From Verrucomicrobiia bacterium (lineage in GTDB: Bacteria > Verrucomicrobiota > Verrucomicrobiia > Palsa-1439), in assembly GCA_052146795.1 (NCBI GenBank), contig JBKQMH010000024.1:2853-66852 (forward strand): a stretch of DNA of 64,000 nt, given 5' to 3'. Under the pieces are notes generated by a model, which did not search any database, had not been told where the DNA came from, and saw only the letters and a list, made by a program, of their open reading frames with translations. Positions 9,613-44,608 of this stretch are shown piece by piece (positions within the stretch are counted from its first letter, which is position 1; every line of letters starts with the position of its first letter). Made by a program: the position numbers and the translations under genes.

Positions 9613-9993
9613 CGGCGGATTTGGGGAGCAAGTGGAGCATTGCGTCCAAGACTTCCTGGAGATTTTTGCGGCGGATCACGAAGCTTCAATTTTGGCGCAC
9701 GGAATGCTGCATTCTGCAACGCATGAGATGTTCTCTCCAACATTTGATGGAATTGTGAATCAATTCAGACGCCCGCATACCGAGGAAAACACCAAGCCCG
9801 TAATAAAATCGCCCGCCCTGACTCGCGCACGAGTCCGGTCGTGGACGACGATGCTGCGTTACTGTATGGTGTGAGCCTGGACTTGCATACATGTCGCTCC
9901 AACGTGGTGACGGCATCCTCCGGTGTCGACGGCCTGAACAGGCTCATCCCCGCCAACCCGGAAGAGTACCCGTTCGCGCCGCAACGGGCCACG

Positions 9994-12919: not shown

Positions 12920-14074
12920 ATGACTACCAAGGCTTCAGTACTCACAGTAAGATTTCCCTCCGCTTTTCCTGACTGCGTGCGGGTGGCACTCAGTTTGGTA
13001 ATTGGGGTGCTCGTGTATTACGCTTACTGGATGCAGCCAGCGGAGGGGGGCATGTCCTGTTATCAGTGGTTGATCGCGCACTGGAACGGAATCTCAAACT
13101 ATTCGCACGGCCCGCTGATTCCCTTGATTGCTTCAGCACTGCTGTGGTGGAACCTGTCGGAGCATGGCCGCGGGGACGAGGATTGGGGGCCGTACTGGCG
13201 GGCCATGGGGGGCGCTGGCGCCGTATTGATGATCTGGATTGTGGGCAGTTCCATTAACAAAGACTGGGAGGATAAGGCCTACTTCTGGTCGCTGACGCTG
13301 TTGCCGTTGACAATCGCATGGCAGGTGTGGGCGTTGCGCGGCCATCTGGTGGGACAGGACGAACCACCCGCGACAACAGGACCGGCGGTCGTGGCGGTGG
13401 CCATGGCGATTTATTACGCGGGAGTGAAAGCTGTTCAGCCCCGCGTGGTCGTCATCTCGGGGATCGTGCTGTTGTACGGTTTGGCGTTGAGTTTTCGCGG
13501 TCGCGATGTGTTTCGTCGGGTGTTTTTTCCGATCACATTTCTGTTCTTGATGGTGCCATTGAATTTTCTGGACGACATGGTCGGATTTCCATTGCGGATG
13601 TTCGTCGCCAGGGTTGCAACCCTGGCCCTCAACTCCATGGGCATCGAGGCCGTGCAACGCGGATCGGGCATCATCTCCCACGTCTTTAGTTTTGATGTGG
13701 CCGATCCGTGCAGCGGGATCCGCTCGTTGATGGCACTGACGACAGTCACCGCGGCCTACGCCTATGTGACGCAACGGGCGCAGTGGAAGCGTTGGTTTTT
13801 ATTTCTTTGCGCCATGCCGTTGGCGGTGCTCGGCAACCTGGCGCGGGTGATCTCGATCGCGTTGGTAGCGCAGGTATACGGGCAGAAAACGGCCACGGAG
13901 GTTTACCACGAGTGGTCGGGGTTTATTCTCTTTCCCGTAGCTCTCGCGGTGATGGTACTCATCGGACTGCTGTTGAATTTTCCATTTTACCGCCTGTTCC
14001 AAAACTGGCTGAAACCGCCGCCGCCACCACCGGACAAGGGGCTGGATGACGACAGGCTTCCGCCTGCAGCATGA
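12920..14074 (+). CDS. Exosortase (EpsH/XrtA-type archaeosortase/exosortase family).
   Basis: About 8 transmembrane segments. Conserved motifs CSGIRSL (Cys) and LGNLARV (Arg). Followed by EpsI. Confidence 0.85.
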   Translation: MTTKASVLTVRFPSAFPDCVRVALSLVIGVLVYYAYWMQPAEGGMSCYQWLIAHWNGISNYSHGPLIPLIASALLWWNLSEHGRGDEDWGPYWRAMGGAGAVLMIWIVGSSINKDWEDKAYFWSLTLLPLTIAWQVWALRGHLVGQDEPPATTGPAVVAVAMAIYYAGVKAVQPRVVVISGIVLLYGLALSFRGRDVFRRVFFPITFLFLMVPLNFLDDMVGFPLRMFVARVATLALNSMGIEAVQRGSGIISHVFSFDVADPCSGIRSLMALTTVTAAYAYVTQRAQWKRWFLFLCAMPLAVLGNLARVISIALVAQVYGQKTATEVYHEWSGFILFPVALAVMVLIGLLLNFPFYRLFQNWLKPPPPPPDKGLDDDRLPPAA

Positions 14075-14087
14075 CGGGAGAAGTTGC

Positions 14088-14873
14088 ATGAGTGAATCAT
14101 CCGCGACAACAACGCCGCCAGCGGCCGTACAACCGGAAGGACAACCCGCCGCGCCGCTACGACGGGGTCCGAGCACGAAACAAATCTCGATCGTGGTTGT
14201 GATCCTGGCAGTCGGGGTGTTGCTCACGGCGACGACCTCGGATGTGGCGAAAGTTTCCGAGCCGGGTGTGAAGTTGTATCCCGATGGAAGCCCGTATCTG
14301 ATCGATCAGGCAGGCGATTGGGCGGGTGGGGAGAAGACGGGATTGACTGAAGACGAACAGCGCCTTTTACCCAAGGACACGGAAGGTTCGCGGCGGATCT
14401 TTAAGGACAAGGACGGCCACGAGTTGTTTTGCTCGATTGTGCTGGCGGGACGCGATGTGACCAGCATTCATCGTCCCGAACTCTGTTTGCCCGGCCAAGG
14501 TTGGAAAATCCAAAGCGAATATACGCAGTCCATACCCGTGGTCGCAGCGCCGGGCGGCACGCTGAACGTGATGCGCATGAACGCCTCTCGCCCGGTTCGG
14601 CTGGCCGGTGGCCGGACGACGCAGGCGCGGTCGGTGTTCGCGTATTGGTTTGTGGGCAAGGATCGGGTAACTCCCTACCATTGGCAGCGCATCTATTGGA
14701 CCGCCAAAGACCGTATCTTTTACAACACGAACCACCGCTGGGCCTACATTTTAATTCACATACCGATCAAGGGCGATGCAGAGGAGGGCGCGTCAGTCAA
14801 ATCGCAAGATGATGCGATGAAGGTGGTCGACAGGTTTATCCAGGCGATTTACCCCGCCCTCGTTGCCAAGTAG
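14088..14873 (+). CDS. epsI: EpsI family protein (exosortase-associated).
   Basis: Hallmark HRPELCLPGQGW. N-terminal transmembrane anchor. GGGAGAAG Shine-Dalgarno before ATG 14088. Alternative start at 14046. Confidence 0.85.
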   Translation: MSESSATTTPPAAVQPEGQPAAPLRRGPSTKQISIVVVILAVGVLLTATTSDVAKVSEPGVKLYPDGSPYLIDQAGDWAGGEKTGLTEDEQRLLPKDTEGSRRIFKDKDGHELFCSIVLAGRDVTSIHRPELCLPGQGWKIQSEYTQSIPVVAAPGGTLNVMRMNASRPVRLAGGRTTQARSVFAYWFVGKDRVTPYHWQRIYWTAKDRIFYNTNHRWAYILIHIPIKGDAEEGASVKSQDDAMKVVDRFIQAIYPALVAK

Positions 14874-14951
14874 CCGTGATGGGACGGCGCCGCAGGCGTG
14901 GGTGGGGGATGAACGGTGCGCCAGAAGCGCCAGAAGTGCCGGAGTGTTCCA

Positions 14952-16370
14952 ATGTCAAATAGACGAAGAGAGGTCATCATTCAAGTCAGCCAGATCGCTG
15001 ACGGGCTGCTGATTGCTGTCGTCTTTTGGTTTGCCCACGCGTTCCGCGAGCAGCTCGCCTTCTCGTTCCCGTTTCCGTATCACGTCCTCGGGCGCACGAT
15101 TCAGTACGGTATGATCGCGCCGTTTCGCTACTACAAGTGGTTGTACTTGATCGTGCTCCCTGTGTATCCATTTCTTCTGGACGCTAACGGCTTTTACAGC
15201 CGCTCCCACAGCCAGCAGCTTCGCAATACGGTGTGGATTCTCGTGAAGTGCAGCATTATCTGCGCGCTAGCGGTCGTGGCGGCGATGTTTTTCTTCCGGC
15301 TGTCCGCGCTGAGCCGTGGTGTTGTGGTGATATTCATGTTGTTCAGTATCGTCGCGCTGTTTGTGAAGGACCAGTTGTTTCAGGCGCTCCTGCGCCATCG
15401 CGCCCGCAGTGGAAAGGAAGTAACGGAGATCATCCTCGTGGGCTCGGAGGAAAGTAACGCGGAGTTTGCCGGGCTGCTCGACGAACACCCGGAATGGAGC
15501 CTCCGTGTCGCCGCCAAACTCGACTCCAACACCGACTTGGTTTCGGAACTTCCCGCCATGTTGCACCGCTACCCCGTCGGGTGCGTGGTCTTCAACGTCA
15601 GTCAAACCGCCTTCGGTGAAATTGAAAAGGCGATCCTCGCGTGCGAAGTCGAAGGCGTCGAGGCGTGGCTCGTGGCCGACTTCGTCAAGACGTCCATCGC
15701 GCGGGCGACTGTGGACGATTTTTACGGGAAGCCACTGTTGATTTTCCGCACCACACCCGAGATTTCCTGGCAGCTTGTCTGCAAGCGGCTCATCGACATG
15801 GCAGGCGCGACGCTCGGCTTGGTCGTCTTGGGTCCGCTGGTCATGGTGCCCGCGGCGATCATCCTAAAGCTTACATCGCCCGGCCCCATGCTGTTCTCGC
15901 AGAAGCGCAGCGGGTTGCATGGGCGCCTCTTCACCATGTACAAGTTTCGCTCGATGGTGACCAACGCCGAATTGCTGAAGGCGGAACTCGAAGTCTTCAA
16001 CGAAATGCGCGGCCCGGTCTTCAAGATGGAGGACGACCCGCGGATCACGCCGGTTGGCCGCTTCTTGCGCAGGACCAGCATCGACGAATTGCCCCAACTC
16101 TGGAATGTCCTCGTCGGGGACATGAGCCTCGTCGGCCCGCGCCCGCCGATTCCCACCGAAGTCCAGCACTACGACCCGTGGCACCGCCGCCGCCTCTCCA
16201 TGAAGCCCGGCCTCACCTGCATCTGGCAGATCAGCGGCCGCAACCAAGTCGGCTTCGACCAGTGGATGAAACTCGACATGCAGTACATCGACAACTGGTC
16301 GCTCTGGCTCGACATCAAGATCCTGGCCCGCACCCTCCCCATCGTACTTACGGGCTTCGGGGCAAAATAG
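14952..16370 (+). CDS. Exopolysaccharide polyprenyl glycosylphosphotransferase (WbaP/EpsB-type 'bacterial sugar transferase').
   Basis: N-terminal transmembrane segments. C-terminal domain PGLTCIWQISGRNQV...DIKILARTLPIVL. Confidence 0.85.
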   Translation: MSNRRREVIIQVSQIADGLLIAVVFWFAHAFREQLAFSFPFPYHVLGRTIQYGMIAPFRYYKWLYLIVLPVYPFLLDANGFYSRSHSQQLRNTVWILVKCSIICALAVVAAMFFFRLSALSRGVVVIFMLFSIVALFVKDQLFQALLRHRARSGKEVTEIILVGSEESNAEFAGLLDEHPEWSLRVAAKLDSNTDLVSELPAMLHRYPVGCVVFNVSQTAFGEIEKAILACEVEGVEAWLVADFVKTSIARATVDDFYGKPLLIFRTTPEISWQLVCKRLIDMAGATLGLVVLGPLVMVPAAIILKLTSPGPMLFSQKRSGLHGRLFTMYKFRSMVTNAELLKAELEVFNEMRGPVFKMEDDPRITPVGRFLRRTSIDELPQLWNVLVGDMSLVGPRPPIPTEVQHYDPWHRRRLSMKPGLTCIWQISGRNQVGFDQWMKLDMQYIDNWSLWLDIKILARTLPIVLTGFGAK

Positions 16371-16497
16371 GCGAGGCTGCGCCCACACCTGCCTGGTCAT
16401 CCATTCTTGTCCATTCGTGGCACTTGCATTTGGCAGCATTCTGTTTTAGAGGGAAGCTCGTGCCAATTCGTGTTTTCAAACCGTTGACGGGCTGACC

Positions 16498-18051
16498 ATG
16501 TCCCGAATCAAGCGTTTCGTCCACATTCTGGCTTCCAGTTACGCTTCGCTGGGCGCCGGCGCTGTGTTCGCCCTCGTGTCCGTGCCGATGGCTTTGCACT
16601 TCCTACCGAAAGCAGAGTTCGGTCTTTGGGCGGTGATGACACAGGCCATTAGCTATATCGCGCTGATCGATGCGGGCATGACGGGTGCCGTGGCTCGTCA
16701 TCTGATCGACTACAAGGATAATCCCGGAGGCGGTGATTATGGCAGTGTGATCCTCACCGGTAATCTCGTGTGGGTAATCCAGGGCGCCATCATTTTTCCG
16801 GTGGGGTTTGCATTGGGTCCCTGGCTCGCACAATTGTTGGCCATTCCGTCGGACCTGCAGCATGAATTCATCATCCTGGTCCGCTGGCAGAGCGCCATCG
16901 TGGCGTTTGGATTCGCCACGCGGCTTTTCGCGCAGATGATCTACGCGCACCAGCGAAATGCCCCGGCAAATTACGTGGAGATTCTCGGTTTTGCGATCAG
17001 TTTGTTCACACTGTGGGTCGCGTTTGTGTGGGGCCAGGGTGTGTACAGCATCTTGTGGGCGGGAGGCATCAGCGCCATCGTGAGCCAGTTGCTGTTGTTC
17101 CTCGTCTGCTGGAGATGCAGGATGTTCCCGCCTTGGGGCGCTTGGGGCCGGCCCACGTGGGCGAGATTCCACCAACTCTTTCACTACGGCAAAGACGTCT
17201 TTCTGGTCATGATGGGCTCGCAACTTGCCTCCGCCAGCCAAACCATCGTGATCACCCGCACCCTCGGGCTGGATGCCGCTGCCGTCTGGTCGGTTTGTAC
17301 GAAATTGTTTGTCTTCGCGGGTGAATTGATCTCGCGCGTCTCCAACTACGCCGAGCCGATGTTTGCCGAGATGATGGCGCGCGGTGAGCATAACCGGTTG
17401 CGCACGCGCTTTCGTGACATCGTCACGATCTGTGGCACGATGAGTGTCTGGGTGGCCGTCGGGTTGGCCCTTGGCAACGCTCCCTTTGTACGCGTGTGGA
17501 CGGCGGGAAAGATCTTCTGGTCGCCCTGGAACGACGTGCTGCTGGGGGTCTGGCTGGTCACGCGATCGATCGTGCGCTGCCACGTCAACCTGATCGTGAT
17601 CAGCAAGAGGATTGGATTCCTTCGGTTCGTCGTATTCGCTGAGGGTATTGTGTTTGTAGTGCTGGCGCTGCTTGTTTCTCGGCGGGGAGGCATCCCGTCC
17701 ATCGTGGGAGCGTCGATTCTCTGTTCCCTGCTACTAACCGGAGACTATAGCGCGCGCAGAAACGCCAAGTACCTCGACTATTCGCGACGGGAGGTCGTGT
17801 TTGGCTGGTTACAGGGCCTGATGCGCTTGTCGGCCTTTCTCGTTCCTTTGGCACTGCTGACGTGGTGTGTTTGTCTGTCGCTTCCCGTCAAATGGCGTCT
17901 TGTGTGTGACTCCATCGTCCTCGGTATTGGTGGCGGACTGCTGTGGCTTCGTTACGGGATCCCTGCCGAAATTCAAGCCGAAGTGCTTGCCCATCTGCCT
18001 TCTCCGTTTACAGCACTGTTGGGAAAGGTTTTTCTCAGGCAGGACGCCTGA
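16498..18051 (+). CDS. Polysaccharide biosynthesis protein / Wzx-like oligosaccharide flippase (MOP superfamily).
   Basis: 517 aa with about 12-14 transmembrane segments and a typical polysacc_synt N-terminus. Confidence 0.7.
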   Translation: MSRIKRFVHILASSYASLGAGAVFALVSVPMALHFLPKAEFGLWAVMTQAISYIALIDAGMTGAVARHLIDYKDNPGGGDYGSVILTGNLVWVIQGAIIFPVGFALGPWLAQLLAIPSDLQHEFIILVRWQSAIVAFGFATRLFAQMIYAHQRNAPANYVEILGFAISLFTLWVAFVWGQGVYSILWAGGISAIVSQLLLFLVCWRCRMFPPWGAWGRPTWARFHQLFHYGKDVFLVMMGSQLASASQTIVITRTLGLDAAAVWSVCTKLFVFAGELISRVSNYAEPMFAEMMARGEHNRLRTRFRDIVTICGTMSVWVAVGLALGNAPFVRVWTAGKIFWSPWNDVLLGVWLVTRSIVRCHVNLIVISKRIGFLRFVVFAEGIVFVVLALLVSRRGGIPSIVGASILCSLLLTGDYSARRNAKYLDYSRREVVFGWLQGLMRLSAFLVPLALLTWCVCLSLPVKWRLVCDSIVLGIGGGLLWLRYGIPAEIQAEVLAHLPSPFTALLGKVFLRQDA

Positions 18052-18311: not shown

Positions 18312-18986
18312 TCAGGGAACCGAGACGGCCCCCAGTCTTTTGACCACGCGGGCCGGGTTGCCCGCCACCAAGGAGTCGGGCGGGATCTCTTTGAGCGCGA
18401 CGACGCTGCCGGCGCCAACAATGCTGCGGTCGCCAATCGCGACGCCTTTCAGGATGATCGCATTGGCGCCGATCAGGATGTCGTCGCCGATCACGACGGG
18501 AGCGGTTTTGCACGCGGCAAGGTCAGCCATGGCGTCGCGGCGGGACAGATAATCTAACGCGTGATAGTCATGGTCGTAGATGCGAGCGTTCCCACCGATG
18601 TTTACGTGCTGTCCGATGCGGATGCTGCTCTTGGAGGACAGGGCCGCAAACGAACAACCGCTATTGTCCCCGAAGGTGATGTGGCCGTCACCCATGCAGT
18701 GGAGGATCGTGGGATTCGTCCGCCCCACCAGATTGGAGCCGGTGCGCGAGTTGATGGTGACGTTCTGGCCGAGCCGGATCGCGCCGCGCCGCGCGACCCG
18801 GACGATGACGCGGCCATCCACGCGAAGGTTCCGGCCATAGGGGCAGCCCAACAAAAGCAGGAGCAGCTTGGTTTGAAGCGTCCAGAAGAAGGTGGAGAGG
18901 TGTCCGACGACGATGTCGAAGAGCACAAACAAGTGAGCGGGGAAATCGTACTTGGCGATGAATTGGCGCAAACGAGTTTTGTTCAT
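18312..18986 (-). CDS. Hexapeptide-repeat acetyltransferase (WcaF/maltose O-acetyltransferase-like).
   Basis: Left-handed beta-helix repeats (IGDDILIGANAIILKGVAIGDRSIVGAGSVV). ATG chosen at MNKTRL. Confidence 0.8.
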   Translation of the reverse strand: MNKTRLRQFIAKYDFPAHLFVLFDIVVGHLSTFFWTLQTKLLLLLLGCPYGRNLRVDGRVIVRVARRGAIRLGQNVTINSRTGSNLVGRTNPTILHCMGDGHITFGDNSGCSFAALSSKSSIRIGQHVNIGGNARIYDHDYHALDYLSRRDAMADLAACKTAPVVIGDDILIGANAIILKGVAIGDRSIVGAGSVVALKEIPPDSLVAGNPARVVKRLGAVSVP

Positions 18987-19002
18987 GGCTCTGTCCATCC
19001 AA

Positions 19003-20205
19003 TCAACGACGTCCGTAGGCTTCAAGCCCCAAGATTTCCTGGTACGCCTGCACCGTTTGTACCGCGACGCGGTCGGGCAGATGGCGGTCGCGGGCGCGTT
19101 GGCGCGCGGCCTCGCCCAGGCGCGCTCGTAGCTCCGGAGCCTTGAGCAATTGGAGGATGGCGTTCGCAAGCTCGGCAGGATTCCGAGGCGGAACCAGCCA
19201 GCCGGTCTGGCCGTGCTCGACCATGGAAGGGATTCCGCCGACCGCGGTGGCGATCACGGGCAGACCCGACACCATTGCTTCGGCGAGAGTGTTCGGACTG
19301 TTTTCGTTTCCCGACGGCAAAATAAACAGTTGGTTGTCGAGATGGTGTTTGGCGATCTGCTCGGCTGACTGAAAGCCCAGGAACTGAACGTTACCGGTGA
19401 TCTGCAACCGTTCACACAGTTGCTGATGCGGCACCTGATCCCCGCCACCGATTACCGTGAGCATGGTCTTTGGTTTCGTTTGTACCGCGAGTTTCAATGC
19501 CTCCAGAAGAACGTCCAGACCCTTGCGCGCTTCGAGTGAGCCGACGTACAGAAGTCGATCCTCATCACGCGCGCGCCATTCGTTCTGAAAGTAGACTGGG
19601 TTCATGGCTTCGTGGATCGTAAAAATGCGGGCGTTGGGGTTGACCGATCGGATGAACCCCGTGTCAAAACTGGTTCGACAGGTAAAGTACCTGGCGCGAC
19701 GCACGCAGTCCTGCTCGTAATGGCGGACGATTCGGGACCGCAGACACGGGTCCGTCTTAAAGTATTCGGTGACGATCCCCTGGATGGAGATCAGGCACGG
19801 CAGCCGCGTCTTGACAGCCGTGAGTGCGTAGGCAGCTTCCGTACCGTGGGCATGGACGACATCAGGCTCTATCGCCTGAACTTCTCTGAGTAACCGAGCG
19901 ACGTTCGCTCGAAAGCGGCTCAGGATATCCAGCGGCAGCCAGGGTGGGAACCCCCGGTTCAGGAAGGGTATGCCCGTCTTCACGACATGGAATGCAATGC
20001 GACCTTTCTGGACACGCTGGGTGGATGAGACGCGGCTGCTTTCGGTGACCAGATGCAATTCCACGTCCGGTCTCGCAGCGAGTGCATTCGAGAGATTGAC
20101 GATCCAACTGCACGGGTGCTCCGTGGAGGGTCTCCGCTTGACGTGAACCTCGGGCTCCAATGACAGGATCGGGAAAGGCGCGAGCCAGACGGCCTTCGTT
20201 TTCAT
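19003..20205 (-). CDS. GT4 family glycosyltransferase.
   Basis: C-terminal EARKG...VIATAVGGIPSMVEHGQTGWLVPP. Start at MKTKAVWLAPFP. ATGA overlap with the upstream gene. Confidence 0.8.
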   Translation of the reverse strand: MKTKAVWLAPFPILSLEPEVHVKRRPSTEHPCSWIVNLSNALAARPDVELHLVTESSRVSSTQRVQKGRIAFHVVKTGIPFLNRGFPPWLPLDILSRFRANVARLLREVQAIEPDVVHAHGTEAAYALTAVKTRLPCLISIQGIVTEYFKTDPCLRSRIVRHYEQDCVRRARYFTCRTSFDTGFIRSVNPNARIFTIHEAMNPVYFQNEWRARDEDRLLYVGSLEARKGLDVLLEALKLAVQTKPKTMLTVIGGGDQVPHQQLCERLQITGNVQFLGFQSAEQIAKHHLDNQLFILPSGNENSPNTLAEAMVSGLPVIATAVGGIPSMVEHGQTGWLVPPRNPAELANAILQLLKAPELRARLGEAARQRARDRHLPDRVAVQTVQAYQEILGLEAYGRR

Positions 20206-21764
20206 GCGGAAACCCGTGTTCCTCCGTTGTTCCACGAAAGAGGTCGTGCGACCACGGCCGGTTCCGTGGAGGGAGGCCGGCGTTCGCTCATGCGCCAGAC
20301 CAGTGTCAGCAGGCCAATCAGAAACAAATGCTCGGGCACTTGGCTGTCGTACGCTCCGAAAATAAACGTGTAATGAACAGGCGCCCAAACGAGTTGGACG
20401 GCCAGGAAGATCGCCACGGGAAGCAGGGGGGTGCCACGGCATCGACGAACGCATTTCACAGAGGAGGTCGCCGCGCCAATCATAAGCGCATAGAACAGAA
20501 TCAGTCCCACCACCCCGGCATAGCGAATCGTGGTCAATGGGCCGTTGTGGAAGGCGCCGCTGATGTCGGCCGATTCCTCGAAGCCGAGGTGAGCCGTCGC
20601 TCCGAAATCTGCTTCACTCACACCGAAACCATCACCGATCCACCAGTTCTTGGCGACTCCGCCTTCTTGGAGGAGCTGACGCCACCAATCCCATCGCGCA
20701 TTACTTCCCTTGACCTCGTCCCTGACGGCCTCGTTCCATTGACCGGGGAGGTCTGCCAGCGCGCGCTGCGCGGCCAAGGGCAAATCAAACAAGCGACCCT
20801 GGCTAAAGACCAGAAGCCCGAGGAAGGCTGCGCCGATTGTGCCTCCCAGAACGACTTCGCGCCAGCCACGGTGGAACCACGCAGCCAACGCCATGTATGC
20901 GAATGCGATCGCCACGCGGTTTCGGTAGCCCGACACGAGGATTGCGACAAATCCCAGTGCAGACAGATAGAATTGCCATCGCATCGGGTTAAGAAACTTG
21001 CGCGGCAGGTAATAGGCGGACAACAACTGTAGGAGCGTCACCCCAAAGGGTCCCAAAAAGTCGAGTCGGCGAACCCCCTCCGCAGCTGTCGTGGCACGGA
21101 GACTCCCCACATACTCCGAGGTGGAAACACTGCTATAGAAAAACCAGACGTAGGGTGTACTGGAAGGGAAAATGTACACAAGCGAGCCGATCAAGGTGGA
21201 AAACGTCATGCTGGCCATCAGCCACAACGGGATTCTGACGACGCTCTTGTAGGATTCAGGCAAATGCACGATGACCCAATAGGCACACCAGCCAATGAAC
21301 ATGTCAAAGTAGGGTCGTCCTCCCATCGTTGCCGCGCCGAGAGCGTGCACACCCACGGGGTGAAACGCAAATGTAAGGGCAATCCAGAAACAGTTGATGA
21401 CCACGAGTGCGCCCAACGCACCCCTCGACTGTCGACTGGTCTGGCCGAGGACACGTTGCATCAAATACGAAAAAGTCACCAGTAAGACCATTGCTTGACT
21501 GATTGATAGTGGCACAGGAAGCGCGTGGATTTGGCCCGTCAGGTACCAAGTGATGACAATCAAAAGCCAGGCACTTCGTTGCATTCCTACAATCACGAAG
21601 ACCGTCGCTGCCACACCGGCCACAACGGCCAAGATCAAGAACTGCTGGTATGCAATCCAGTACGCGACGACCACGGCAAGCACCATGCAAATGGCCACGG
21701 TAATCCAACGGCGGATTGCCTCGGTGGCCAACTGCTGGTCGTTGATGATCTCGGAAAACTTCAT
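20202..21764 (-). CDS. O-antigen ligase/polymerase-like (Wzy_C) polytopic membrane protein.
   Basis: 520 aa with more than 10 transmembrane segments and a large periplasmic loop. Start at MKFSEIIND. Confidence 0.55.
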   Translation of the reverse strand: MKFSEIINDQQLATEAIRRWITVAICMVLAVVVAYWIAYQQFLILAVVAGVAATVFVIVGMQRSAWLLIVITWYLTGQIHALPVPLSISQAMVLLVTFSYLMQRVLGQTSRQSRGALGALVVINCFWIALTFAFHPVGVHALGAATMGGRPYFDMFIGWCAYWVIVHLPESYKSVVRIPLWLMASMTFSTLIGSLVYIFPSSTPYVWFFYSSVSTSEYVGSLRATTAAEGVRRLDFLGPFGVTLLQLLSAYYLPRKFLNPMRWQFYLSALGFVAILVSGYRNRVAIAFAYMALAAWFHRGWREVVLGGTIGAAFLGLLVFSQGRLFDLPLAAQRALADLPGQWNEAVRDEVKGSNARWDWWRQLLQEGGVAKNWWIGDGFGVSEADFGATAHLGFEESADISGAFHNGPLTTIRYAGVVGLILFYALMIGAATSSVKCVRRCRGTPLLPVAIFLAVQLVWAPVHYTFIFGAYDSQVPEHLFLIGLLTLVWRMSERRPPSTEPAVVARPLSWNNGGTRVSA

Positions 21765-21945: not shown

Positions 21946-23616
21946 TTAATCCCGTTCCACGTATCGCTGGGCAATGGGGACGCGGCGACCGATACCGAAG
22001 GCTTTGGTGGTGACGCGCAAGCAGGGCGGGGCTTGTTTGCGTTTGTACTCGTTGAGGTCGATTTTGCGGACGACATCGCGGACGAGCTTCTCACCGTAAC
22101 CCGTTTCCTTCACGATCTCGAGCGTCGATTTCGCTTCTTCGACGTAGCGCTTGATGATCGCGTCCAGAATGTCGTAGGGCGGAAGCGAATCCTGGTCGGT
22201 TTGATTCGGGCGAAGTTCCGCGGACGGCGCTTTCGTGATGGAAGCTTCCGGAATGGGGAATCCTTTCTTTCCCGCCGTTCGCTTTCCATTCTGGTTGATG
22301 TACCGGGCGAGTTCATAGACCATCGTTTTGGGCACGTCGGCGATGACGCCGAGGCCTCCATTCATGTCGCCGTAGAGCGTGCAGTAGCCGACAGCCAATT
22401 CCGATTTATTGCCTGTGGTCAGCAGCATGTGGCCGAACTTGTTCGAGAGCGCCATCAACGTCGTGCCGCGAATGCGCGCCTGGATGTTTTCCTCGGTCGT
22501 GTCTTCCGTCAGTCCCTTGAACACCGGCTGTAGCGTGGCTTTGAACCGCTCGAAGACATCCTGAATCACGATCGTCTCCCACCGAATCCCGAGGTTGTGC
22601 GCCAGGTCCCGCGCGTCGTCGATGCTGCCCCGCGACGAAAACTGCGAGGGCATGGAAACCCCCATCACGTTTTCGGCGCCGAGCGCCGCGACCGCCAGGC
22701 AGGCCGTGACCGCGGAGTCGATCCCGCCGCTGAGGCCGAGCACGACCGATTTGAAACCGCATTTGCGCGTGTAATCGCGCAGTCCGAGCACCAGCGCATC
22801 GTGCAGGGCCGCGGCCGGCTTGACCGGCTCGGGCTGAATGGCAACCGGCGAATCCAGGTCAACCAGCACCAGGTCTTCGGCGAAAGCCGCCCCGGCTGCG
22901 ACGAGATGACCGGAAGCGTCGAACACCAGGCTGTTGCCGTCGAACACCAGTTCGTCATTGCCGCCGACGAGATTGCAGTACAGGACCGGAACGCCGTACC
23001 GTTGCGCCACGGCGCGGAGCATATCGTGGCGAACGTGTTCCTTGCCCAGATGGTAGGGCGACGCCGACATGTTCAGCAGCAATTGGGCGTGTTTGTCTCC
23101 TCGCATCAACTCAAAAATCGGGCTGCGTTCGTACAGGCGCTTGGGCAGGTAATCTTGCGGCCAGATATCCTCGCAAACCGTTAGCCCCAGACGCCGATCG
23201 GCGAATTCGACCACGGTATTCGACTCCGCCGGCTGAAAATAGCGATCTTCGTCGAAAACATCGTACGTGGGCAGGAGCATTTTTTGGCGGCGAGCGATAA
23301 TCCTGCCGTTTTGGATCAGCGCGACGGCATTCCAGTAATCGCGGCCGGGGCGTTTGGTATTGAAATCAACATACCCGACAAGCAACGCGGTCTGGCCAAC
23401 CTGCGCGGCGAGCTCCTCCAGCACGCGCAGGTTGTCATCCACGAAGCGGTGTTTAGCGAGCAAATCGCGCGGCGGATAGCCCGTGATGGCCATCTCGGGG
23501 GTCATAACGAGGCCAGCCCCCGCGGTGGTGCCGCGGCGGTAGAAATCGAGGATTCGGGCACCGTTGCCGCCCAGATCGCCCACGGTGGCATCCAGTTGCG
23601 CCAGCGCGATCTTCAT
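21946..23616 (-). CDS. nadE: Glutamine-dependent NAD+ synthetase.
   Basis: N-terminal CN-hydrolase domain (MKIALAQLDATVGDL) followed by a C-terminal NAD synthetase domain. 556 aa. Confidence 0.9.
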   Translation of the reverse strand: MKIALAQLDATVGDLGGNGARILDFYRRGTTAGAGLVMTPEMAITGYPPRDLLAKHRFVDDNLRVLEELAAQVGQTALLVGYVDFNTKRPGRDYWNAVALIQNGRIIARRQKMLLPTYDVFDEDRYFQPAESNTVVEFADRRLGLTVCEDIWPQDYLPKRLYERSPIFELMRGDKHAQLLLNMSASPYHLGKEHVRHDMLRAVAQRYGVPVLYCNLVGGNDELVFDGNSLVFDASGHLVAAGAAFAEDLVLVDLDSPVAIQPEPVKPAAALHDALVLGLRDYTRKCGFKSVVLGLSGGIDSAVTACLAVAALGAENVMGVSMPSQFSSRGSIDDARDLAHNLGIRWETIVIQDVFERFKATLQPVFKGLTEDTTEENIQARIRGTTLMALSNKFGHMLLTTGNKSELAVGYCTLYGDMNGGLGVIADVPKTMVYELARYINQNGKRTAGKKGFPIPEASITKAPSAELRPNQTDQDSLPPYDILDAIIKRYVEEAKSTLEIVKETGYGEKLVRDVVRKIDLNEYKRKQAPPCLRVTTKAFGIGRRVPIAQRYVERD

Positions 23617-23820: not shown

Positions 23821-25185
23821 CTATTCTAAAACGCGCGGGCTAATCGCATGTACGGTGTGCTTAGACAGCAAACACGCATAGCCTACCCCTGCGTAGACGG
23901 TCAGAGTCAAGTCCCATGGGAGCCGGTACCGCTGATACCATTCGGTGATTACCATCACCTCGAAGGCGGTCAGTGCCAGGAACACCAGCAGGGCAAGGCG
24001 CGAGATCGCCAGGTGCCGCATCCGCCACCAACCGTAGTAGCCCGCCGGAAAAATCAGCAGCCAAAACACCGTGGCGATCACTCGATTCCGTGGCGACATC
24101 TGTCCGGTGAACGGCCCCAAGGTCGCGCACAACCTGACGAAACACAGCTTCGCATATTGGGCTGGGTTCTCGCGAATCCAGAGCAGCGCGGCCGGGGTGG
24201 AGTGGTGACCGGTGCGCTCCAGATAGGCGGCGTAACGCGCCGCCTCCTGCTCCGACATCTTCCAACGGGTCCACGGATTGCCGGGCCGCCGCTCCCAGAG
24301 GCTCCCAAGTCGCATACTTTCATAATACGGATTGTTTGCTTCCCACAGGATGGAGGCGGCGGCTTCCTCGGTGCCTTTCTCCGCCAGGGGCCCGCGCGCC
24401 GATACCTCCAACAGCACGCGGCTGGCCGCCGCGCCCAGCGCCACCAGGGCGCAGACCACGCAGACCGCGCGGCGGGTATCGATGAATTGCCACAGCAGCC
24501 ACAGACCCGCCGCCCCAGCGACGACGAAGAAGGCGGCCTGCGCGTAGGCACCCAGAGAGATCGCCAGCGTGAACAGCCACAACCGACCGCTCGTCTGCGG
24601 GCTGGAGGCAGCAAACAGCGCGAGTGCCATTACGAACAAAACCAGGGGCGTCGGGCCGATAGAGCCCACATGCATCGCCAACCGCAGATTGATGAAGACC
24701 AGCAAGGCCGCGATGATCATAGCCAACACACCCTGCCTTGTCGCAATCCGCCATGCCGCGCACGCCACAAACAGACACGTCAGGCCCGCCAACACCGCTT
24801 GCGCCACGGCCACCGGCAGCAAGCGAATACCTCCGCCCCAATAACAAGCAGCCAGAAAGTAAGCGTACACCGGAGCGTGGAAGAAAAACTTACCCGTACG
24901 GGCACGCGGTACACCGGTGCGAAGCGTTGCCATCGCCGCACGATTGTAGACGGTGGCATCCCGGTCCGCATCGCCGTTCCACCCCGGAAAACTGGCCAGA
25001 AAAGCTTCGCCCTCGAGATGCAGGCTGGTGCGGGTAGGGAGATTCTCAGCGTGTGTGGCGTAGTAAACGCCAAAGATCAGGTGGAAAACAAATGTTCCGA
25101 TCACCAGCAAACCTATCGGCAGGTGATTCCGTTGGAACAACTTCGCAGCATCCTGTATGTCGGCCTGACCTTGTCCCGCGTTCAT
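23821..25185 (-). CDS. GT-C membrane glycosyltransferase of the ArnT/PMT_2 type (GT83/GT39-like).
   Basis: Start at MNAGQ. First periplasmic loop DADRDATVYNRAAMA...KFFFHAPVYAYFLA resembles the ArnT DExRYAE...KPPLxY region. About 11 transmembrane segments. Confidence 0.6.
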   Translation of the reverse strand: MNAGQGQADIQDAAKLFQRNHLPIGLLVIGTFVFHLIFGVYYATHAENLPTRTSLHLEGEAFLASFPGWNGDADRDATVYNRAAMATLRTGVPRARTGKFFFHAPVYAYFLAACYWGGGIRLLPVAVAQAVLAGLTCLFVACAAWRIATRQGVLAMIIAALLVFINLRLAMHVGSIGPTPLVLFVMALALFAASSPQTSGRLWLFTLAISLGAYAQAAFFVVAGAAGLWLLWQFIDTRRAVCVVCALVALGAAASRVLLEVSARGPLAEKGTEEAAASILWEANNPYYESMRLGSLWERRPGNPWTRWKMSEQEAARYAAYLERTGHHSTPAALLWIRENPAQYAKLCFVRLCATLGPFTGQMSPRNRVIATVFWLLIFPAGYYGWWRMRHLAISRLALLVFLALTAFEVMVITEWYQRYRLPWDLTLTVYAGVGYACLLSKHTVHAISPRVLE

Positions 25186-26279
25186 CGGCCACCCGGCTCC
25201 TTGTCCGTGGGCCGCCCGGCTCCCGTCGCCGCCCGAGAAGCGACCGCATGCTGTGCGATGTTGACCGCCAGACCGTGTTCTCCCGACATGTTCCACAGGA
25301 CACTGCGATCCCCGGTCGTAATCGCCGTGTAAAAGTTGGCGTGAGTGATGTCCATGCCGTAGTGCAACCGGTGCCGGACGTACTTGACTCCGTTGGCAAT
25401 GAATCCGCGCCAGTGCTGAAAGGTCGTGAGAAACGAAGTGGTGAAAACCTCCTTCATCAAATGCTGCCCGTCGTTCGGAAGCACGGTCGAGATGTCGCGG
25501 AACATGTCCACCATCGCGTACCGCTTCGTTCCAAACACAATGAAGAACCATTCGCAGATGGGGCTCTCGAAGTTGCTATACACGGTTCCCGGCAAGCCGT
25601 TGACTTCCACCGTGATGTCCAGAATCTGTGGCGTGTTCTTGCCGGACGGGGAACCAACCACGGCCACGTCTTTGATCGCCACGTCCCCCCCGCCAAACCG
25701 GCGCAGCAGGTAGAACACATGCGGCGATTCGTCGTAGAACAACCCCAACGGAAGATCGTCCCCCCAAGCGGGAAGCCGACGCGTATCATTGCTAAACTGA
25801 ATGCAGTAGAAGCTTGTAACCGTCCCCAACTTGCCCTCGGCGATGAGCTGTTGCAGTTTGCGGAAACTGGAAGAGAACTGGAAGTTCTGATTCACCGCGA
25901 GGATGACCCGCTTCGCCGTCGCAAGGTCGATGAGTGTGCGGCCCTCCTGCAAATCGGTTACAAACGGTTTCTCAACGAGCACATGTTTCCCGATCTCCAA
26001 ACAGGCACGGACAGCCGGGGCATGCTGCTTGGGCGGTGTCGCAATAAGCACTGCGTCCACCTCCTGCAACAGAGGAATCGACCGCAACTGGCTGCTGTCG
26101 GAGCACACCACCGCGTGGGGGATTCCAAAGAGCCGGGCAACTCGTTCACTCTTGCTCTGCGTGTGATCGACGATGAGGGTGGGTTCAAATCGCTCGCGAC
26201 CCGCGGCGACCAACGCGGGCAAATGCCGCGTCTGCATGATGTTGCCCGCACCAATCAGAGCCAGCTTCAGTTTCTTCAT
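25182..26279 (-). CDS. Gfo/Idh/MocA family oxidoreductase.
   Basis: MKKLKLALIGAGNIMQTRHLPAL. ATGA overlaps on both sides. Confidence 0.8.
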   Translation of the reverse strand: MKKLKLALIGAGNIMQTRHLPALVAAGRERFEPTLIVDHTQSKSERVARLFGIPHAVVCSDSSQLRSIPLLQEVDAVLIATPPKQHAPAVRACLEIGKHVLVEKPFVTDLQEGRTLIDLATAKRVILAVNQNFQFSSSFRKLQQLIAEGKLGTVTSFYCIQFSNDTRRLPAWGDDLPLGLFYDESPHVFYLLRRFGGGDVAIKDVAVVGSPSGKNTPQILDITVEVNGLPGTVYSNFESPICEWFFIVFGTKRYAMVDMFRDISTVLPNDGQHLMKEVFTTSFLTTFQHWRGFIANGVKYVRHRLHYGMDITHANFYTAITTGDRSVLWNMSGEHGLAVNIAQHAVASRAATGAGRPTDKEPGGR

Positions 26280-27439
26280 CGCGGCAGTCCCATGTCCCGA
26301 AAAAGAAAGCGTTCCGTGAGGGCGGCGCAAGAAAAATCGCGCACGATTCGTTCTTGAAGATTTCGCGCCACGCGCGCCCGCAATCCGGGTGCTTGGTCCA
26401 GCCTTCGAAGCGCGGCGTCAATCCGGGTGGGTTCTCCCCGCTCGATCAGGAGCCCCGTTTCGCCATCGACAACGATTTCCGCCGCCCCGCCGCAAGGGGT
26501 AGAGATGACCGCCAATCCACACAACCCCGCCTCGAGCAGAATCGTCGGCAACCCCTCGGGGTAGTTGGACGGGTTGACCAGTACGAACGCTTGCGTCATC
26601 ACGCTCATGACCGTCGCCAGTGGCTGGAGTCCCAAGAATAGAATCTTCGCGTCCTGTTTCGCAGCCTCGCGCAGGGGAGATTCGAGTTCGCCACACCCGA
26701 TGACGACCAGAAGGTAATCCTCCCGATCCCGAGCAAAACTCTGGAAGGCGGCTACCAATTCCATGACACCCTTCTCTTTTACCAGCCGGCCCACGGCAAG
26801 CACAACTTTTTTATCGGCCATCGACCCGATGAGCTCACGGAGTGGCACCACCTCGGTGGGTCGCTGATCCGGATCGACCCCGTTGTAACACACGCCCGCT
26901 TGGCGAACGCCGAACCGGCGGAGCCATTTCACACACGCCTGCGCCACACCAAATACGCGGGGACGGAAGCTTAGGACCGCCAAGGTCATCAAATGTTCGT
27001 AGACATGGCAGGCTGCATTCCACCAGCGGTTGCCGAGCTGGATGTAGTCCGAGCTGTGATCAATGAGCGCCAGCTTGCTTCCCGAGCACCGCGCCCACAA
27101 GCATCCGAGCACCGAGAGAAGATAATAGCGTGTATGGACGATCGTCAGTTCGCCGGGCCGTGAGATGAACTCTCGCGTGAGATGGTAAAGCTGACCCGGG
27201 TTCGTGGGAAATGGCATCCGACAATGGGCCAGAGGGCTCCAACAATGGAGACGGTAGATGGTGATCTGGGGCTGTACGTCAGACCACCCCAGTTGTTCCG
27301 AGTCATGCGTGATGATGCGCACGGCAAAGCCGAGCCGAACACACTCCCTCGCCTGCAAATTGACGTACCGTTCCACGCCGCCCGGATACGGAAGATAATG
27401 CGAACACACTATCGTAATCAACCGTTGACTGGACTCCAT
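26276..27439 (-). CDS. GT4 family glycosyltransferase.
   Basis: EGLPTILLEAGLCGLAVISTPCGGAAEIVVDGETGLL. Start chosen at MESSQRLITIV. Confidence 0.8.
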   Translation of the reverse strand: MESSQRLITIVCSHYLPYPGGVERYVNLQARECVRLGFAVRIITHDSEQLGWSDVQPQITIYRLHCWSPLAHCRMPFPTNPGQLYHLTREFISRPGELTIVHTRYYLLSVLGCLWARCSGSKLALIDHSSDYIQLGNRWWNAACHVYEHLMTLAVLSFRPRVFGVAQACVKWLRRFGVRQAGVCYNGVDPDQRPTEVVPLRELIGSMADKKVVLAVGRLVKEKGVMELVAAFQSFARDREDYLLVVIGCGELESPLREAAKQDAKILFLGLQPLATVMSVMTQAFVLVNPSNYPEGLPTILLEAGLCGLAVISTPCGGAAEIVVDGETGLLIERGEPTRIDAALRRLDQAPGLRARVARNLQERIVRDFSCAALTERFLFRDMGLPR

Positions 27440-27467
27440 GGGGCGGTTGGACAATTGTTTCACTGAA

Positions 27468-28439
27468 TCACGGCATGCTCTTGCGAATCGTGGACTGCAC
27501 GGATTCTCTCGGAACGTTTTGGACATCCATCACCAGTGCCTGCAAAAGCAGTTGCAGACCTAAGATCACGGGCAATACAGCGATCATCACTGTGCCAGTC
27601 GGAGTGGGTAGGCCCGCGTGGGCGTACCACCACCAGTAGTACCCACCCCACAGAATGCCAAAAATCGTTGCCGCCAAACCCGTAACGATGAAGAGTGACA
27701 CCGCATTGAAATCCCGCACGAAGTACTGCATCACGACACGCCCCACCAGTCCCCGCAGCAGCAGGGGCGGAAACTCCAGCAGGGTACGCGTTTCGGACAG
27801 GTGGCTGACCTTCTCGTTGTAACGCGCCGGCATGTACACGTCGCGCACCACCGCGCGGTTCAAGCCCAACTCCAGCAGCATGCTGTTCTCGAAGAAAAAC
27901 CTTTTGTGGATCCTGTTTTGGTCCAGCAGCGGCAGCACGGCGGCATGAATCGCCACGTAACCGTTGTTGGGATCGAAAAGGTTCCAGTAGCCTGAAGCCA
28001 TCTTGGCCATGAACGATAGGCCGATGTTGCCCAGCCTCCGCACCCACGGCATGCGAACCAGTTCGCGGCTGTGCAGAAACCGATTTCCCTTCACGTAGTC
28101 GGCCTCGCCCAGCCGGATCGGTTCGATCAACGCGGGCAGGCCGGCCGGATTCATCTGGCCGTCACCGTCCATTTTCACCAGTACATCCGCGCCCAGTTCC
28201 AGGGCCTTGGCGAATCCCGTCAGCGCTGCCCCGCCGACACCCTGATTGTGATCGTGGCGCAGCACCACCAGCCGCTGATCGCCGACAGAGCGCGCTCGAT
28301 CCAGCGTGGCGTCGGGCGACGCATCGTCCACGACCACGATGTGGTCCACCCACGACGGCAATCCGCGAATCACGTCTTCGATGCGTTCCTCCTCGCGATA
28401 GGCAGGAATTACGATGGCAATTCGCAGATTCTGGTACAT
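27468..28439 (-). CDS. GT2 glycosyltransferase with two C-terminal transmembrane helices (ArnC/GtrB/CsbB-like polyprenyl-phosphate sugar synthase architecture).
   Basis: AIVIPAYREEERI, VVDDASPD, a DGDGQ motif, and C-terminal hydrophobic helices. Start at MYQNLRIAIV. Confidence 0.8.
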   Translation of the reverse strand: MYQNLRIAIVIPAYREEERIEDVIRGLPSWVDHIVVVDDASPDATLDRARSVGDQRLVVLRHDHNQGVGGAALTGFAKALELGADVLVKMDGDGQMNPAGLPALIEPIRLGEADYVKGNRFLHSRELVRMPWVRRLGNIGLSFMAKMASGYWNLFDPNNGYVAIHAAVLPLLDQNRIHKRFFFENSMLLELGLNRAVVRDVYMPARYNEKVSHLSETRTLLEFPPLLLRGLVGRVVMQYFVRDFNAVSLFIVTGLAATIFGILWGGYYWWWYAHAGLPTPTGTVMIAVLPVILGLQLLLQALVMDVQNVPRESVQSTIRKSMP

Positions 28440-28597
28440 GAATGTTCCGAACCTATAACAAGCGCAAACATGCAATGGAAGTGCAAAGTCTCCCCGTGTA
28501 GCGCGGCGCCTGCCGCACGACGGCTTCACGCGCTCGGAGAGGACTCAACCCTGGCTCATTACACAGGTAGAATCTTAACACAACCGGTCGCCTCTTG

Positions 28598-29791: not shown

Positions 29792-30080
29792 AAAAAGTCG
29801 TCCCTCGAACGTTGCCAGCGCGCATCGGCCACCTTTGTTCAAGTGCGTGCGACGCGGGCAAACCTTGCTCCGTTGAGCGTGCCTCAGTTTCGCCCAAGAG
29901 GCTGGTCGTTTCAAGGAAAGAAGGCGAGGATAAGCCAATAAATCTCTGTGATATTTGTTTGCAGCAGGCGCGCGCAAAGGCGCCCTGCTGTGGCAGCACG
30001 AATTTGTGGCTTGCGACCAAGCCCAGGCGATGCGCAGCGAGTGTTTGAGCGCCATCATCTGAAGGGCGCCAAAAAAACCG

Positions 30081-33592: not shown

Positions 33593-33920
33593 TGTTCCAC
33601 CAGAATAATTGAACAGCCCCGGGAAACAAGCAAGCTTGTAGCGGGAAACCGGGCCAACGCCGTGCGCCTCATCGCGATCATCCAGTGTTGCGTGTTCTTC
33701 CCCATGCGCCACCACCGGACTCACCGGAAATCGCACGGGTGATGTGTGCTCAACTTACTCACAGGATACCCCTCAACGATGGATGCGACGCGCTGGGTTT
33801 GCACTCGGCGCCGCTGGCCAGCCTGCGCGGGGCCACCCCGTCCAACCGCAATACCTTCTCCCGCGCCAATCCGGGTTGACTACTTCGGTTCGTTGTGGTC
33901 CCTGAAAGACCCCTGCGACG

Positions 33921-34778: not shown

Positions 34779-35279
34779 TCTATCACAAGCACCCCGCCAG
34801 GCAAGCCATACAGACACGACGATTGCATCTGGGTGAGTGTGATTGTGCTGTTGTAAATGGGCGGGTGCGACCGGTTTACGGAGGCGTGTTTTTGACTTCC
34901 GGTTGGATGGGGTTTGTGGTTGAAGATGGGGATCGCCAACCCTCTCGATCGAGGCCAGTTGCCCGCGCGGCCCGAGCACCGCGGCTCTACCAGCAAAATC
35001 GCTTACTCAACGAGTTCACTTGTAGCCCTCCCTCGTGAATCAAGGGGCCAAACAGGTCGTGGTCCTCATGACAACGACACCCGGGAATTGCTCGACGATG
35101 AATCTTCCCCTTCGCTTTTTCGTCTCCATTACGGTTTACTTTGAGGCGCCTTGGAGCGAAGGCACGGGCTGTAGAATTGGCTTGTCAGCGTTGTCAAAGA
35201 CGTTACCATAAACTTTTACTCGAAACAATCGATCAGCGACAGGCGTGAAGCGTAAACCATATTGAGAAATGTAGGTTCC

Positions 35280-41588: not shown

Positions 41589-41594
41589 CCGCTG

Positions 41595-44595: not shown

Positions 44596-44608
44596 TTGAC
44601 GGAGGATC

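Follow-up and report, generated by a model that had tools for sequence, protein, structure and literature searches.

Several groups of described membrane proteins resemble the one analyzed here. The O-antigen ligase WaaL (PF04932; CAZy GT121; structure 7TPG from Cupriavidus metallidurans) has 12 helices, a large helical periplasmic loop before the last of them, an Arg-Arg-His constellation, and an H-N-x9-G-xx-G motif. A Wzy_C-type membrane protein encoded near exosortases is described by TIGR03097 ([quoted passage not shown]). The protein O-oligosaccharyltransferases (O-OTases) PglL, TfpO (PilO), PglS, and TfpM use a glycan on undecaprenyl diphosphate (Und-PP) as donor and depend on a His and arginines; Wzy_C and this essential His are common to all known O-OTase classes (PMC9829042, PMC3643930). 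The PglL_A motif (PF15864) separates PglL from WaaL (Schulz 2013). Finally, Wzy polymerases of clan GT-C1 (GT125-GT129, e.g., Pseudomonas aeruginosa Wzy) have a GT-C_B-type architecture, a long C-proximal periplasmic loop, and conserved arginines. The position at which these related polymerases have Asp or Glu is occupied by a His in O-ligases (Meitil et al. 2024, PMC10920833).

The locus compared with these systems lies in a 64,000-nt stretch of DNA (the window) from a Verrucomicrobiia bacterium. The gene of interest (the target) is a real gene, as the sequence-only reading held, and codes for a membrane enzyme with 14 predicted helices. It runs on the minus strand from an ATG at 21764 to a TGA at 20204-20202. 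The longest mechanical open reading frame reaches a TTG at 21914; NCBI annotates the identical protein at 520 aa. The genes around it are as follows.

12920-14873, plus strand: exosortase (generic 8TM_EpsH) and EpsI, a neighboring module outside the conserved cassette
14916-16370, plus strand: polyprenyl glycosylphosphotransferase (Bac_transf, TIGR03025), priming enzyme for the Und-PP-linked donor
16498-18051, plus strand: Wzx-like MOP flippase (Polysacc_synt_3), convergent with the cassette
18312-18998, minus strand: hexapeptide-repeat (WbbJ-like) sugar O-acetyltransferase, third gene of the target-GT4-acetyltransferase cassette
19003-20205, minus strand: GT4 glycosyltransferase, 400 aa, translationally coupled to the target
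20202-21764, minus strand: the target, a Wzy_C-superfamily (WaaL-fold) membrane glycan transferase by homologs, motif, and AlphaFold (AF2) fold, 520 aa, ~14 transmembrane helices
21946-23616, minus strand: NadE, glutamine-dependent NAD+ synthase (housekeeping), the next gene upstream of the target
23821-34979, minus strand except for one GT4 paralog: remaining string of glycan genes, listed below
23821-25185, minus strand: PMT_2/ArnT-like GT-C
26276-27526, minus strand: GT4
27468-28529, minus strand: GT2
28598-30058, minus strand: GT4
30081-31289, plus strand: GT4 paralog
31172-33736, minus strand: YfhO-like GT-C
33921-34979, minus strand: GT2

The TGA of the target overlaps the ATG (20205) of the GT4 gene in an ATGA junction. 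Coupling of this kind had been proposed for both downstream genes and exists only for the GT4 gene; the acetyltransferase ATG lies 4 nt past the GT4 stop. A scan for promoters and terminators around the target gene gave chance-level results only. The exosortase, EpsI, the priming phosphotransferase, and the flippase lie 2-9 kb from the target on the opposite strand. No second Wzy_C-type protein was found in the window, and no gene of the 23821-34979 string is a candidate Wzy. An unannotated 576-aa open reading frame in that string (23821-25551) was considered as the true Wzy and rejected: the gene codes for 454 aa, and its homologs are PMT_2/ArnT-like GT-C proteins. Wzz, Wzc, and Wza were absent from the Pfam-scanned genes of the window and from seven Pfam-annotated loci.

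Assignment of the target to the O-antigen-ligase-like (Wzy_C) superfamily, as first proposed from the sequence, is right, though only indirectly. Even at E ≤ 10, neither Pfam, PF04932 (Wzy_C) included, nor NCBIfam yields a match for the target itself, and PDB sequence-profile searches with both family alignments, narrow and broad, returned nothing; in this it is unlike WaaL. PF04932 is, however, matched by 35 of 49 homologs in one set (scanned at E ≤ 1) and by 34 of 78 in another (E ≤ 0.1). Two orthologs, 62% and 51% identical to the target, reach 42.5 and 38.9 bits, above the gathering threshold of 31.7, and their matches span residues ~266-426, a region conserved in the target. Some family members carry the PGAP label "O-antigen ligase family protein." The AF2 model of the target (pLDDT 83, pTM 0.83) found WaaL (7tpg_B, E = 6.8e-6) as the top PDB match in Foldseek and the SEDS proteins FtsW and RodA next; TM-scores to WaaL were modest (0.42/0.51). 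The protein is about 100 residues longer than WaaL, with ~14 predicted helices instead of 12, and has a single large loop (residues 322-407) that recalls the WaaL loop. The suggested comparison of Wzy_C with PglL-type profiles thus came out for Wzy_C through orthologs but not for the target directly, whereas PglL_A was matched by neither the target nor any relative (0/49 and 0/78), a result that rules out the PglL class only, as TfpO/PilO-type enzymes also do without PglL_A.

Residue conservation carries the comparison with WaaL further. Among the residues predicted to be periplasmic, R233, R281, R334, R357, G377, G379, and H406 are invariant, and D378 is nearly so (≥90%). The four arginines and H406 are unchanged in all 85 sequences of a combined alignment, and R281, R334, R357, and H406 remain so across a 134-sequence alignment. 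Alignment with enterobacterial WaaL sequences (hhalign, 167 columns) pairs R281 with R215, R357 with R288, H406 with H338, and G417/G420 with G349/G352 of Escherichia coli WaaL, in a register to which hhalign gives a probability of only 1.6%. The WaaL alignment was needed for the right register; the single E. coli WaaL sequence gave a spurious match of 20-25 columns. The resulting target motif, H406-N407-x9-G417-xx-G420, has the same H-N-x9-G-xx-G form as E. coli WaaL and the solved C. metallidurans WaaL, and this form occurs in 206 of 217 family sequences. The control polymerase, WbbH of E. coli O16, has neither the motif nor any similarity. Where ligases have their His, this family too has an invariant His (85/85) and not the Asp/Glu of GT-C1 polymerases. 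R233 and R334 are two invariant arginines more than WaaL has.

The family comprises ~1,604 clusters at 50% identity, the best 150 of which align essentially full-length, and all members with an organism label are Verrucomicrobiota. Gene context was compared in ~38 distinct loci; the 36 from GTDB were found with a narrow search pattern ([FYL]H[NS]GPL[TS][TA]IR) and so form a biased sample. Family members are consistently embedded in Und-PP glycan assembly loci. A GT4 homolog (58%-90% identity) lies immediately downstream in 13 other distinct loci, the whole target-GT4-acetyltransferase cassette is conserved in nine others, and NadE is directly upstream in two (L005 and L013). The target is 62%-80% identical to its close relatives, compared with 93%-95% for the flanking NadE and 87%-90% for GT4. 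At least two contigs carry two paralogs, and the members of such pairs adjoin different sugar-gene blocks. Searches near family members for LPS-core heptosyltransferases, with E. coli WaaC, WaaF, and WaaU as queries, gave no matches; the sole core-type gene is one Glyco_transf_9 between two paralogs on one contig. Unlike WaaL, the target sits in variable glycan loci, coupled to GT4, with no recognizable core-oligosaccharide cluster.

Export genes differ among subclades. In three loci (L031, L034, and L038), the family gene is flanked by wzm (ABC2_membrane) on one side and wzt (ABC_tran + Wzt_C) on the other, and members 53%-63% identical to this subclade (L027 and L035) adjoin Wzx-like flippases. 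The wzm/wzt subclade is only ~30% identical to the target, and in the target's own clade all loci seen are of Wzx type; the subclades could therefore differ in function. The ABC-transporter (wzm/wzt) pathway of O-polysaccharide export has no polymerase step, and placement in such operons therefore argues against a Wzy polymerase. Occurrence of closely related members with both Wzx and wzm/wzt points to independence from the export route, as expected of a ligase such as WaaL.

Our leading explanation, to which we give about even credence, is that the target is a divergent WaaL-type ("His-type") glycan ligase of a Verrucomicrobiota family. For its chemistry and acceptor, we infer the following by homology. 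The neighboring priming transferase and the GT2 and GT4 enzymes would build a glycan on Und-PP, which would be O-acetylated and brought to the periplasmic face by the Wzx-like flippase. There, R281 and R357, aided by R233 and R334, would bind the Und-PP moiety in the target, and H406 would activate the acceptor hydroxyl. The whole glycan would be passed on in one inverting step with release of Und-PP. The acceptor would most likely be lipid A-core, which would make this family the O-antigen ligase of the phylum. Several points count against the ligase reading: the target itself matches no profile, the hhalign probability is low and the TM-scores are modest, the wzm/wzt evidence comes from a subclade distant from the target, no lipid A-core genes other than the one Glyco_transf_9 were found beside family members, paralog pairs occur, and three of 78 members weakly match TIGR04370. 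The window also holds no other candidate polymerase, which leaves polymerization unexplained: there is none, or the polymerase is encoded elsewhere.

That gap is the starting point for an alternative we consider unlikely, in which the target is a Wzy-type polymerase that joins Und-PP repeat units flipped by Wzx, the polymer being ligated or exported by proteins encoded elsewhere. The window encodes a priming transferase, a Wzx-like flippase, at least seven glycosyltransferases, and an acetyltransferase, yet no polytopic protein besides the target that is Wzy_C-like or lacks another assignment; like GT-C1 polymerases, the target stands beside Wzx and glycosyltransferase genes, and it is tightly coupled to the GT4 gene. 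Its divergence, faster than that of the flanking genes, resembles that of serotype-specific genes, and the placement of paralog pairs beside different sugar-gene blocks fits as well. Weak matches to TIGR04370 ("repeat unit polymerase"; 3/78) and PF01901 (1/78) lean in the same direction. Against these stand the invariant His where related polymerases have Asp/Glu, the members within wzm-wzt operons with their 53%-63% identical relatives beside Wzx, and the lack of a Wzz/Wzc co-polymerase or Wza in the genes and loci scanned with Pfam. Wzy proteins are also hypervariable, unlike a family in which the best 150 of ~1,600 clusters are conserved over their full length. The initial doubt about a plain Wzy polymerase was therefore well placed, given the invariant His and the wzm/wzt operons.

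A second alternative, to which we likewise assign a low probability, is a protein O-OTase (PglL/TfpO/WsaB-like) that would attach the Und-PP-glycan to Ser/Thr residues of proteins in the periplasm or at the surface, perhaps including PEP-CTERM cargo of the neighboring exosortase. The catalytic signature fits an O-OTase as well as it fits a ligase, and general O-glycosylation systems are likewise laid out with Wzx but no polymerase or co-polymerase. The ABC-transporter context does not exclude a protein acceptor, because WsaB, the O-OTase for the S-layer of Geobacillus, is likewise found with Wzm/Wzt. Potential protein substrates are close by in some loci: a secreted beta-helix protein is encoded directly upstream in one subclade (which includes L034), and in the window, an exosortase lies 6 kb off and a PEP-CTERM protein is encoded at 2-775. 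On the other side, no member matches PglL_A or, the weak TIGR04370 matches aside, any NCBIfam model (E ≤ 1 in the set of 49 and E ≤ 0.1 in the set of 78). In the target's own clade, no pilin-like or other recurrent target gene is found beside the family member, and the family is spread over Verrucomicrobiota inside sugar-assembly loci, unlike the genes for PglL, TfpO, PglS, and TfpM. LPS-bearing diderm bacteria also require a WaaL, for which no other candidate turned up; across 37 loci, no other membrane protein has the ligase motif.

The exosortase link on which the PEP-CTERM version of this alternative depends is a property of few loci. A position inside an exosortase locus, as described by the sequence-only reading, applies to the window and to a single relative at 80% identity (L010); exosortase and EpsI adjoin the family member only there, in 2 of the ~38 distinct loci, so the position is not a property of the family. 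PEP-CTERM open reading frames occur near members in two loci, L016 and the window, where the distance is 19 kb. The Wzx-like flippase of the window is 95% identical to that of L010 and only 43%-46% identical to those of other close relatives; the exosortase-EpsI-PGT-Wzx operon behaves as a separate module, which also weighs against an O-OTase. The window exosortase scores 152.5, below the XrtA cut-off of 208. TIGR03097, presumably included in NCBIfam 20.0, was matched by neither the target (E ≤ 10) nor the 49 and 78 relatives. Like the proteins that TIGR03097 describes, the target is a Wzy_C-type membrane protein with an exosortase gene nearby, but the model match, an XrtA-level exosortase, and conserved adjacency are absent. 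Our literature search returned nothing relevant on an exosortase-linked "O-glycosylation ligase" or on ligases and O-glycosylation in Verrucomicrobia.

Glycosylation of PEP-CTERM cargo by the target as an exosortase-linked ligase, which had been put forward from the sequence, is accordingly not supported: there is no PglL_A match, and both exosortases and PEP-CTERM proteins are rare near members. We regard as improbable the fuller version, in which the family is the O-OTase of general surface-protein glycosylation in Verrucomicrobiota and acts here on PEP-CTERM proteins of the adjacent unclassified exosortase; if true, it would be the first link between exosortase sorting and O-glycosylation. 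Equally improbable is another acceptor or role (peptidoglycan, another lipid, a capsule anchor, or a transporter-like role, as reportedly proposed for the Wzy_C protein IctB), which would suit a family too divergent for any curated model, with two more helices than WaaL, two extra invariant arginines, and modest similarity to it, but which sits poorly with the consistent embedding in Und-PP glycan assembly loci and the preserved catalytic constellation of ligases.

The analysis removes a tempting but unsupported tie between the target and exosortase/PEP-CTERM sorting. In current profile libraries, the target and many of its ~1,600 relatives are missed or carry just a generic name. If the ligase reading is true, an invariant His in H-N-x9-G-xx-G together with occurrence beside both Wzx and Wzm/Wzt would give a simple rule for telling ligase-type from polymerase-type Wzy_C proteins in Verrucomicrobiota genomes. 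If this family is the O-antigen ligase of Verrucomicrobiota, its recognition would improve the annotation of cell-envelope glycan pathways for a phylum that abounds in soils, peat, and the gut.

The gene at 20202–21764 (the target) runs on the minus strand from an ATG at 21764 to a TGA at 20204–20202 and encodes 520 amino acids; the mechanically extended open reading frame (ORF) starts at TTG 21914. An identical protein (P0001, 520 aa) from an NCBI Verrucomicrobiia metagenome-assembled genome (MAG) is named 'hypothetical protein'. Hydropathy and an AlphaFold model indicate a polytopic protein with ~14 helices, in which residues 322–407 form one large helical loop. On the same strand, the next gene upstream is NadE, beyond which GT2, GT4, and GT-C genes continue to 34979. 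The sequence-only reading had ATGA coupling to both a GT4 gene and an acetyltransferase gene. This holds for the GT4 gene, whose ATG (20205) shares bases with the target stop; the acetyltransferase gene is close but not ATGA-coupled, since it starts 4 nt past the GT4 stop. Neighboring genes are listed below, with those from 12920 to 18051 converging on the target cassette.

12920–14074, plus strand, exosortase
14046–14873, plus strand, EpsI
14916–16370, plus strand, polyprenyl glycosylphosphotransferase
16498–18051, plus strand, Wzx-like flippase
18312–18998, minus strand, hexapeptide O-acetyltransferase
19003–20205, minus strand, GT4 glycosyltransferase (400 aa)
21946–23616, minus strand, NadE (NAD+ synthase), directly upstream of the target
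36291–47126, plus strand, second sugar block: CapK-like adenylating enzyme, aminotransferase, fused ADH/GFO oxidoreductase (691 aa), WecG/TagA glycosyltransferase, a 349-aa protein without a Pfam match, a TPR protein, and an AlgE-like (Alginate_exp) outer-membrane barrel

NadE is a housekeeping gene set within a glycan gene string, and NadE-target synteny recurs in related loci L005 and L013. An unannotated membrane protein at 23821–25185 (minus strand) was considered as a Wzy and rejected: it is a PMT_2/ArnT-like GT-C enzyme, with no Pfam match itself and homologs that match PF13231. A YfhO-like GT-C enzyme with a GT2 beside it lies at 31172–34979 (minus strand). Two periplasmic GT-C glycosyltransferases in one gene string suggest polyprenyl-phosphate-sugar decoration modules, and at other loci, too, family members have a wide variety of GT-C-like membrane proteins around them. 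The GT4 ORF at 30081–31289 (plus strand) lies head-to-head with a 41%-identical paralog (28598–30058, minus strand), shares ~118 nt with the 3′ end of the YfhO gene, and is perhaps a duplicate undergoing decay, with a lengthened tail. The stretch at 9841–12336 (plus strand), where an 831-aa PKD-domain protein is encoded, has a GC content of 0.51 versus ~0.59 elsewhere and may be recently acquired DNA.

Membership of the target in the O-antigen-ligase superfamily was established only indirectly. Even with the cut-off relaxed to E ≤ 10, the target itself had no match in Pfam or NCBIfam. A word-index search recovered 72 relatives (30%–80% identity), and PF04932 (Wzy_C) matched 35 of 49 full-length relatives. 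Orthologs P0014 (62% identity) and P0036 (51% identity) cleared the 31.7-bit threshold with scores of 42.5 and 38.9 bits, each covering the whole model at residues ~266–426. In an exhaustive profile search, 1,604 cluster representatives passed E ≤ 1e-3, and 525 of them also passed E ≤ 1e-30; among the 1,604, the top 150 are mostly ~500–540 aa and align over essentially their full length. All 36 GTDB loci recovered, by a narrow search pattern, come from Verrucomicrobiota MAGs. The best PDB match to the AF2 model (pLDDT 83, pTM 0.83) is the WaaL ligase 7tpg_B (E 6.8e-6, TM 0.42/0.51), followed by FtsW and RodA. Together, the ortholog scores, the family profile, and the WaaL-like fold therefore place the target as a divergent member of a large family within the superfamily, and the earlier Wzy_C call stands through its relatives and fold rather than a profile match of its own.

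Residues P136, G279, R281, R334, R357, G377, G379, H406, G417, and G420, among others, are invariant among 134 diverse members, and R233 varies rarely if at all. The positive-inside rule puts every invariant residue in a predicted periplasmic loop. The target string H406-N407-x9-G417-xx-G420 has the same form as H338-N-x9-G-xx-G in Escherichia coli WaaL, with an equivalent in the solved C. metallidurans WaaL; of 217 family sequences, 206 contain this motif. A low-confidence profile-profile alignment with enterobacterial WaaL (167 columns, probability 1.6%, E 0.03) pairs R281, R357, and H406 with R215, R288, and H338, which are essential in WaaL and correspond to R224, R298, and H349 of PglL (Schulz et al. 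2013, PMC3643930).

A Wzy polymerase is an unlikely identity, and the doubt already raised about a simple polymerase is borne out by the invariant His, the ABC-transporter contexts, and end-to-end conservation, all of which argue against it. Among GT-C enzymes using Und-PP-sugars in new CAZy families, the proposed acceptor-activating position is a His in O-ligases (GT121), Asp or Glu in same-clan polymerases (GT125–129), and Asp in SEDS proteins (Meitil et al. 2024, PMC10920833); the His is invariant in the target's family. In loci L031, L034, and L038, the family member retains all invariant residues and is flanked by wzm (ABC2_membrane, 3.4e-20) on one side and wzt (ABC_tran plus Wzt_C, the latter 6.7e-9) on the other, sharing 4 nt with wzt in L031. 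Locus L044 repeats this layout with a fragmented copy, and Glf, a SIS-domain isomerase, and BacA occur near members of this type. In the ABC-transporter pathway the full chain is built in the cytoplasm; a polymerase step is absent, and a ligase is required. Members in L027 and L035, 53%–63% identical to the wzm/wzt ones, are instead followed by a Wzx-like flippase; a ligase would be expected to tolerate either export route. Whereas Wzy proteins are hypervariable, this family is conserved over its whole length in many hundreds of clusters, and the control polymerase, E. coli O16 WbbH, has neither the ligase motif nor any similarity to the family. On the polymerase side, the target is the sole candidate within the window, where the family profile found no paralog, and no other membrane protein across 37 loci carries the ligase motif. 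In near relatives the target also diverges faster (62%–80% identity) than NadE (93%–95%) and GT4 (87%–90%), paralog pairs occur on two contigs (57%–58% identical within a pair), TIGR04370 weakly matches 3 of 78 members, and the wzm/wzt-context subclade is only ~30% identical to the target.

One of these pairs lies on a 73-kb contig (L007/L008), with 58.5% mutual identity, ~21 kb apart, and a Glyco_transf_9 (heptosyltransferase-family) gene between them; the second sugar block adjoins the second paralog there. The other pair is P0012/P0029. In the subclade of L027, L031, L034, L038, and L044, the gene immediately upstream of the family member (at about 8.1–9.9 kb in L034) invariably specifies a secreted right-handed beta-helix protein of ~590 aa, which might modify glycans or itself be glycosylated.

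A protein O-oligosaccharyltransferase (O-OTase) is comparably unlikely. Wzm/Wzt genes also accompany the gene for WsaB, an S-layer O-OTase. All known O-OTase classes combine Wzy_C with the same essential His (PMC9829042), so the catalytic signature suits this identity equally well. In the profile comparison, PF04932 was matched via relatives, and PglL_A (PF15864) matched neither the target nor any of 49 and 78 relatives. No family member matched the NCBIfam ligase models, presumably including TIGR03097, the 'exosortase-associated O-glycosylation ligase'; such a ligase is mentioned neither by Haft (2006) nor in the searchable literature.

Glycosylation of PEP-CTERM cargo, as first proposed, is less probable still and was not upheld by these profile results or by gene context. 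When window proteins were searched by tblastn against 44 related loci (~38 distinct; ≤10 kb each side), exosortase, EpsI, and the priming transferase accompanied a family member only in L010, which carries an 80%-identical ortholog, even at E ≤ 0.01. By contrast, 13 other distinct loci have a GT4 homolog (58%–90% identity) as the next gene downstream, followed in 9 by the acetyltransferase, and in 15 loci a flippase that matches the window's Wzx is encoded no more than 7 kb away. Genus-level relatives (NadE 93%–95% identical) share the target-GT4-acetyltransferase cassette, lack the exosortase, and have a Wzx only 43%–46% identical; the exosortase-EpsI-glycosylphosphotransferase-Wzx operon, common to the window and L010 only, therefore forms a module of its own, which in this lineage simply happens to sit next to the cassette. 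PEP-CTERM tails near family members were found only in L016 (two) and at 2–775 in the window, 19 kb from the target. The latter (plus strand; …VPEPTVVLLWLSSIATLYAARKRGAGKK), the only one found in 64 kb, is the C-terminal part of an ORF extending past the left window edge. For the exosortase, the generic 8TM_EpsH model gives the only match, and the protein scores below all named Xrt subtype cut-offs (XrtA 152.5 versus 208). It carries ~100 additional N-terminal residues, is accompanied by a separate EpsI, and may be an unclassified subtype.

Another acceptor or role for the target is improbable. The target is most likely, at middling confidence, a WaaL-type ligase that transfers an Und-PP-linked glycan to lipid A-core. 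The surrounding genes would make the glycan, R281 and R357 would hold the diphosphate of the Und-PP donor, and H406 would activate the acceptor. The novelty is modest: the clade is new and profile-invisible, and its kind is already known.
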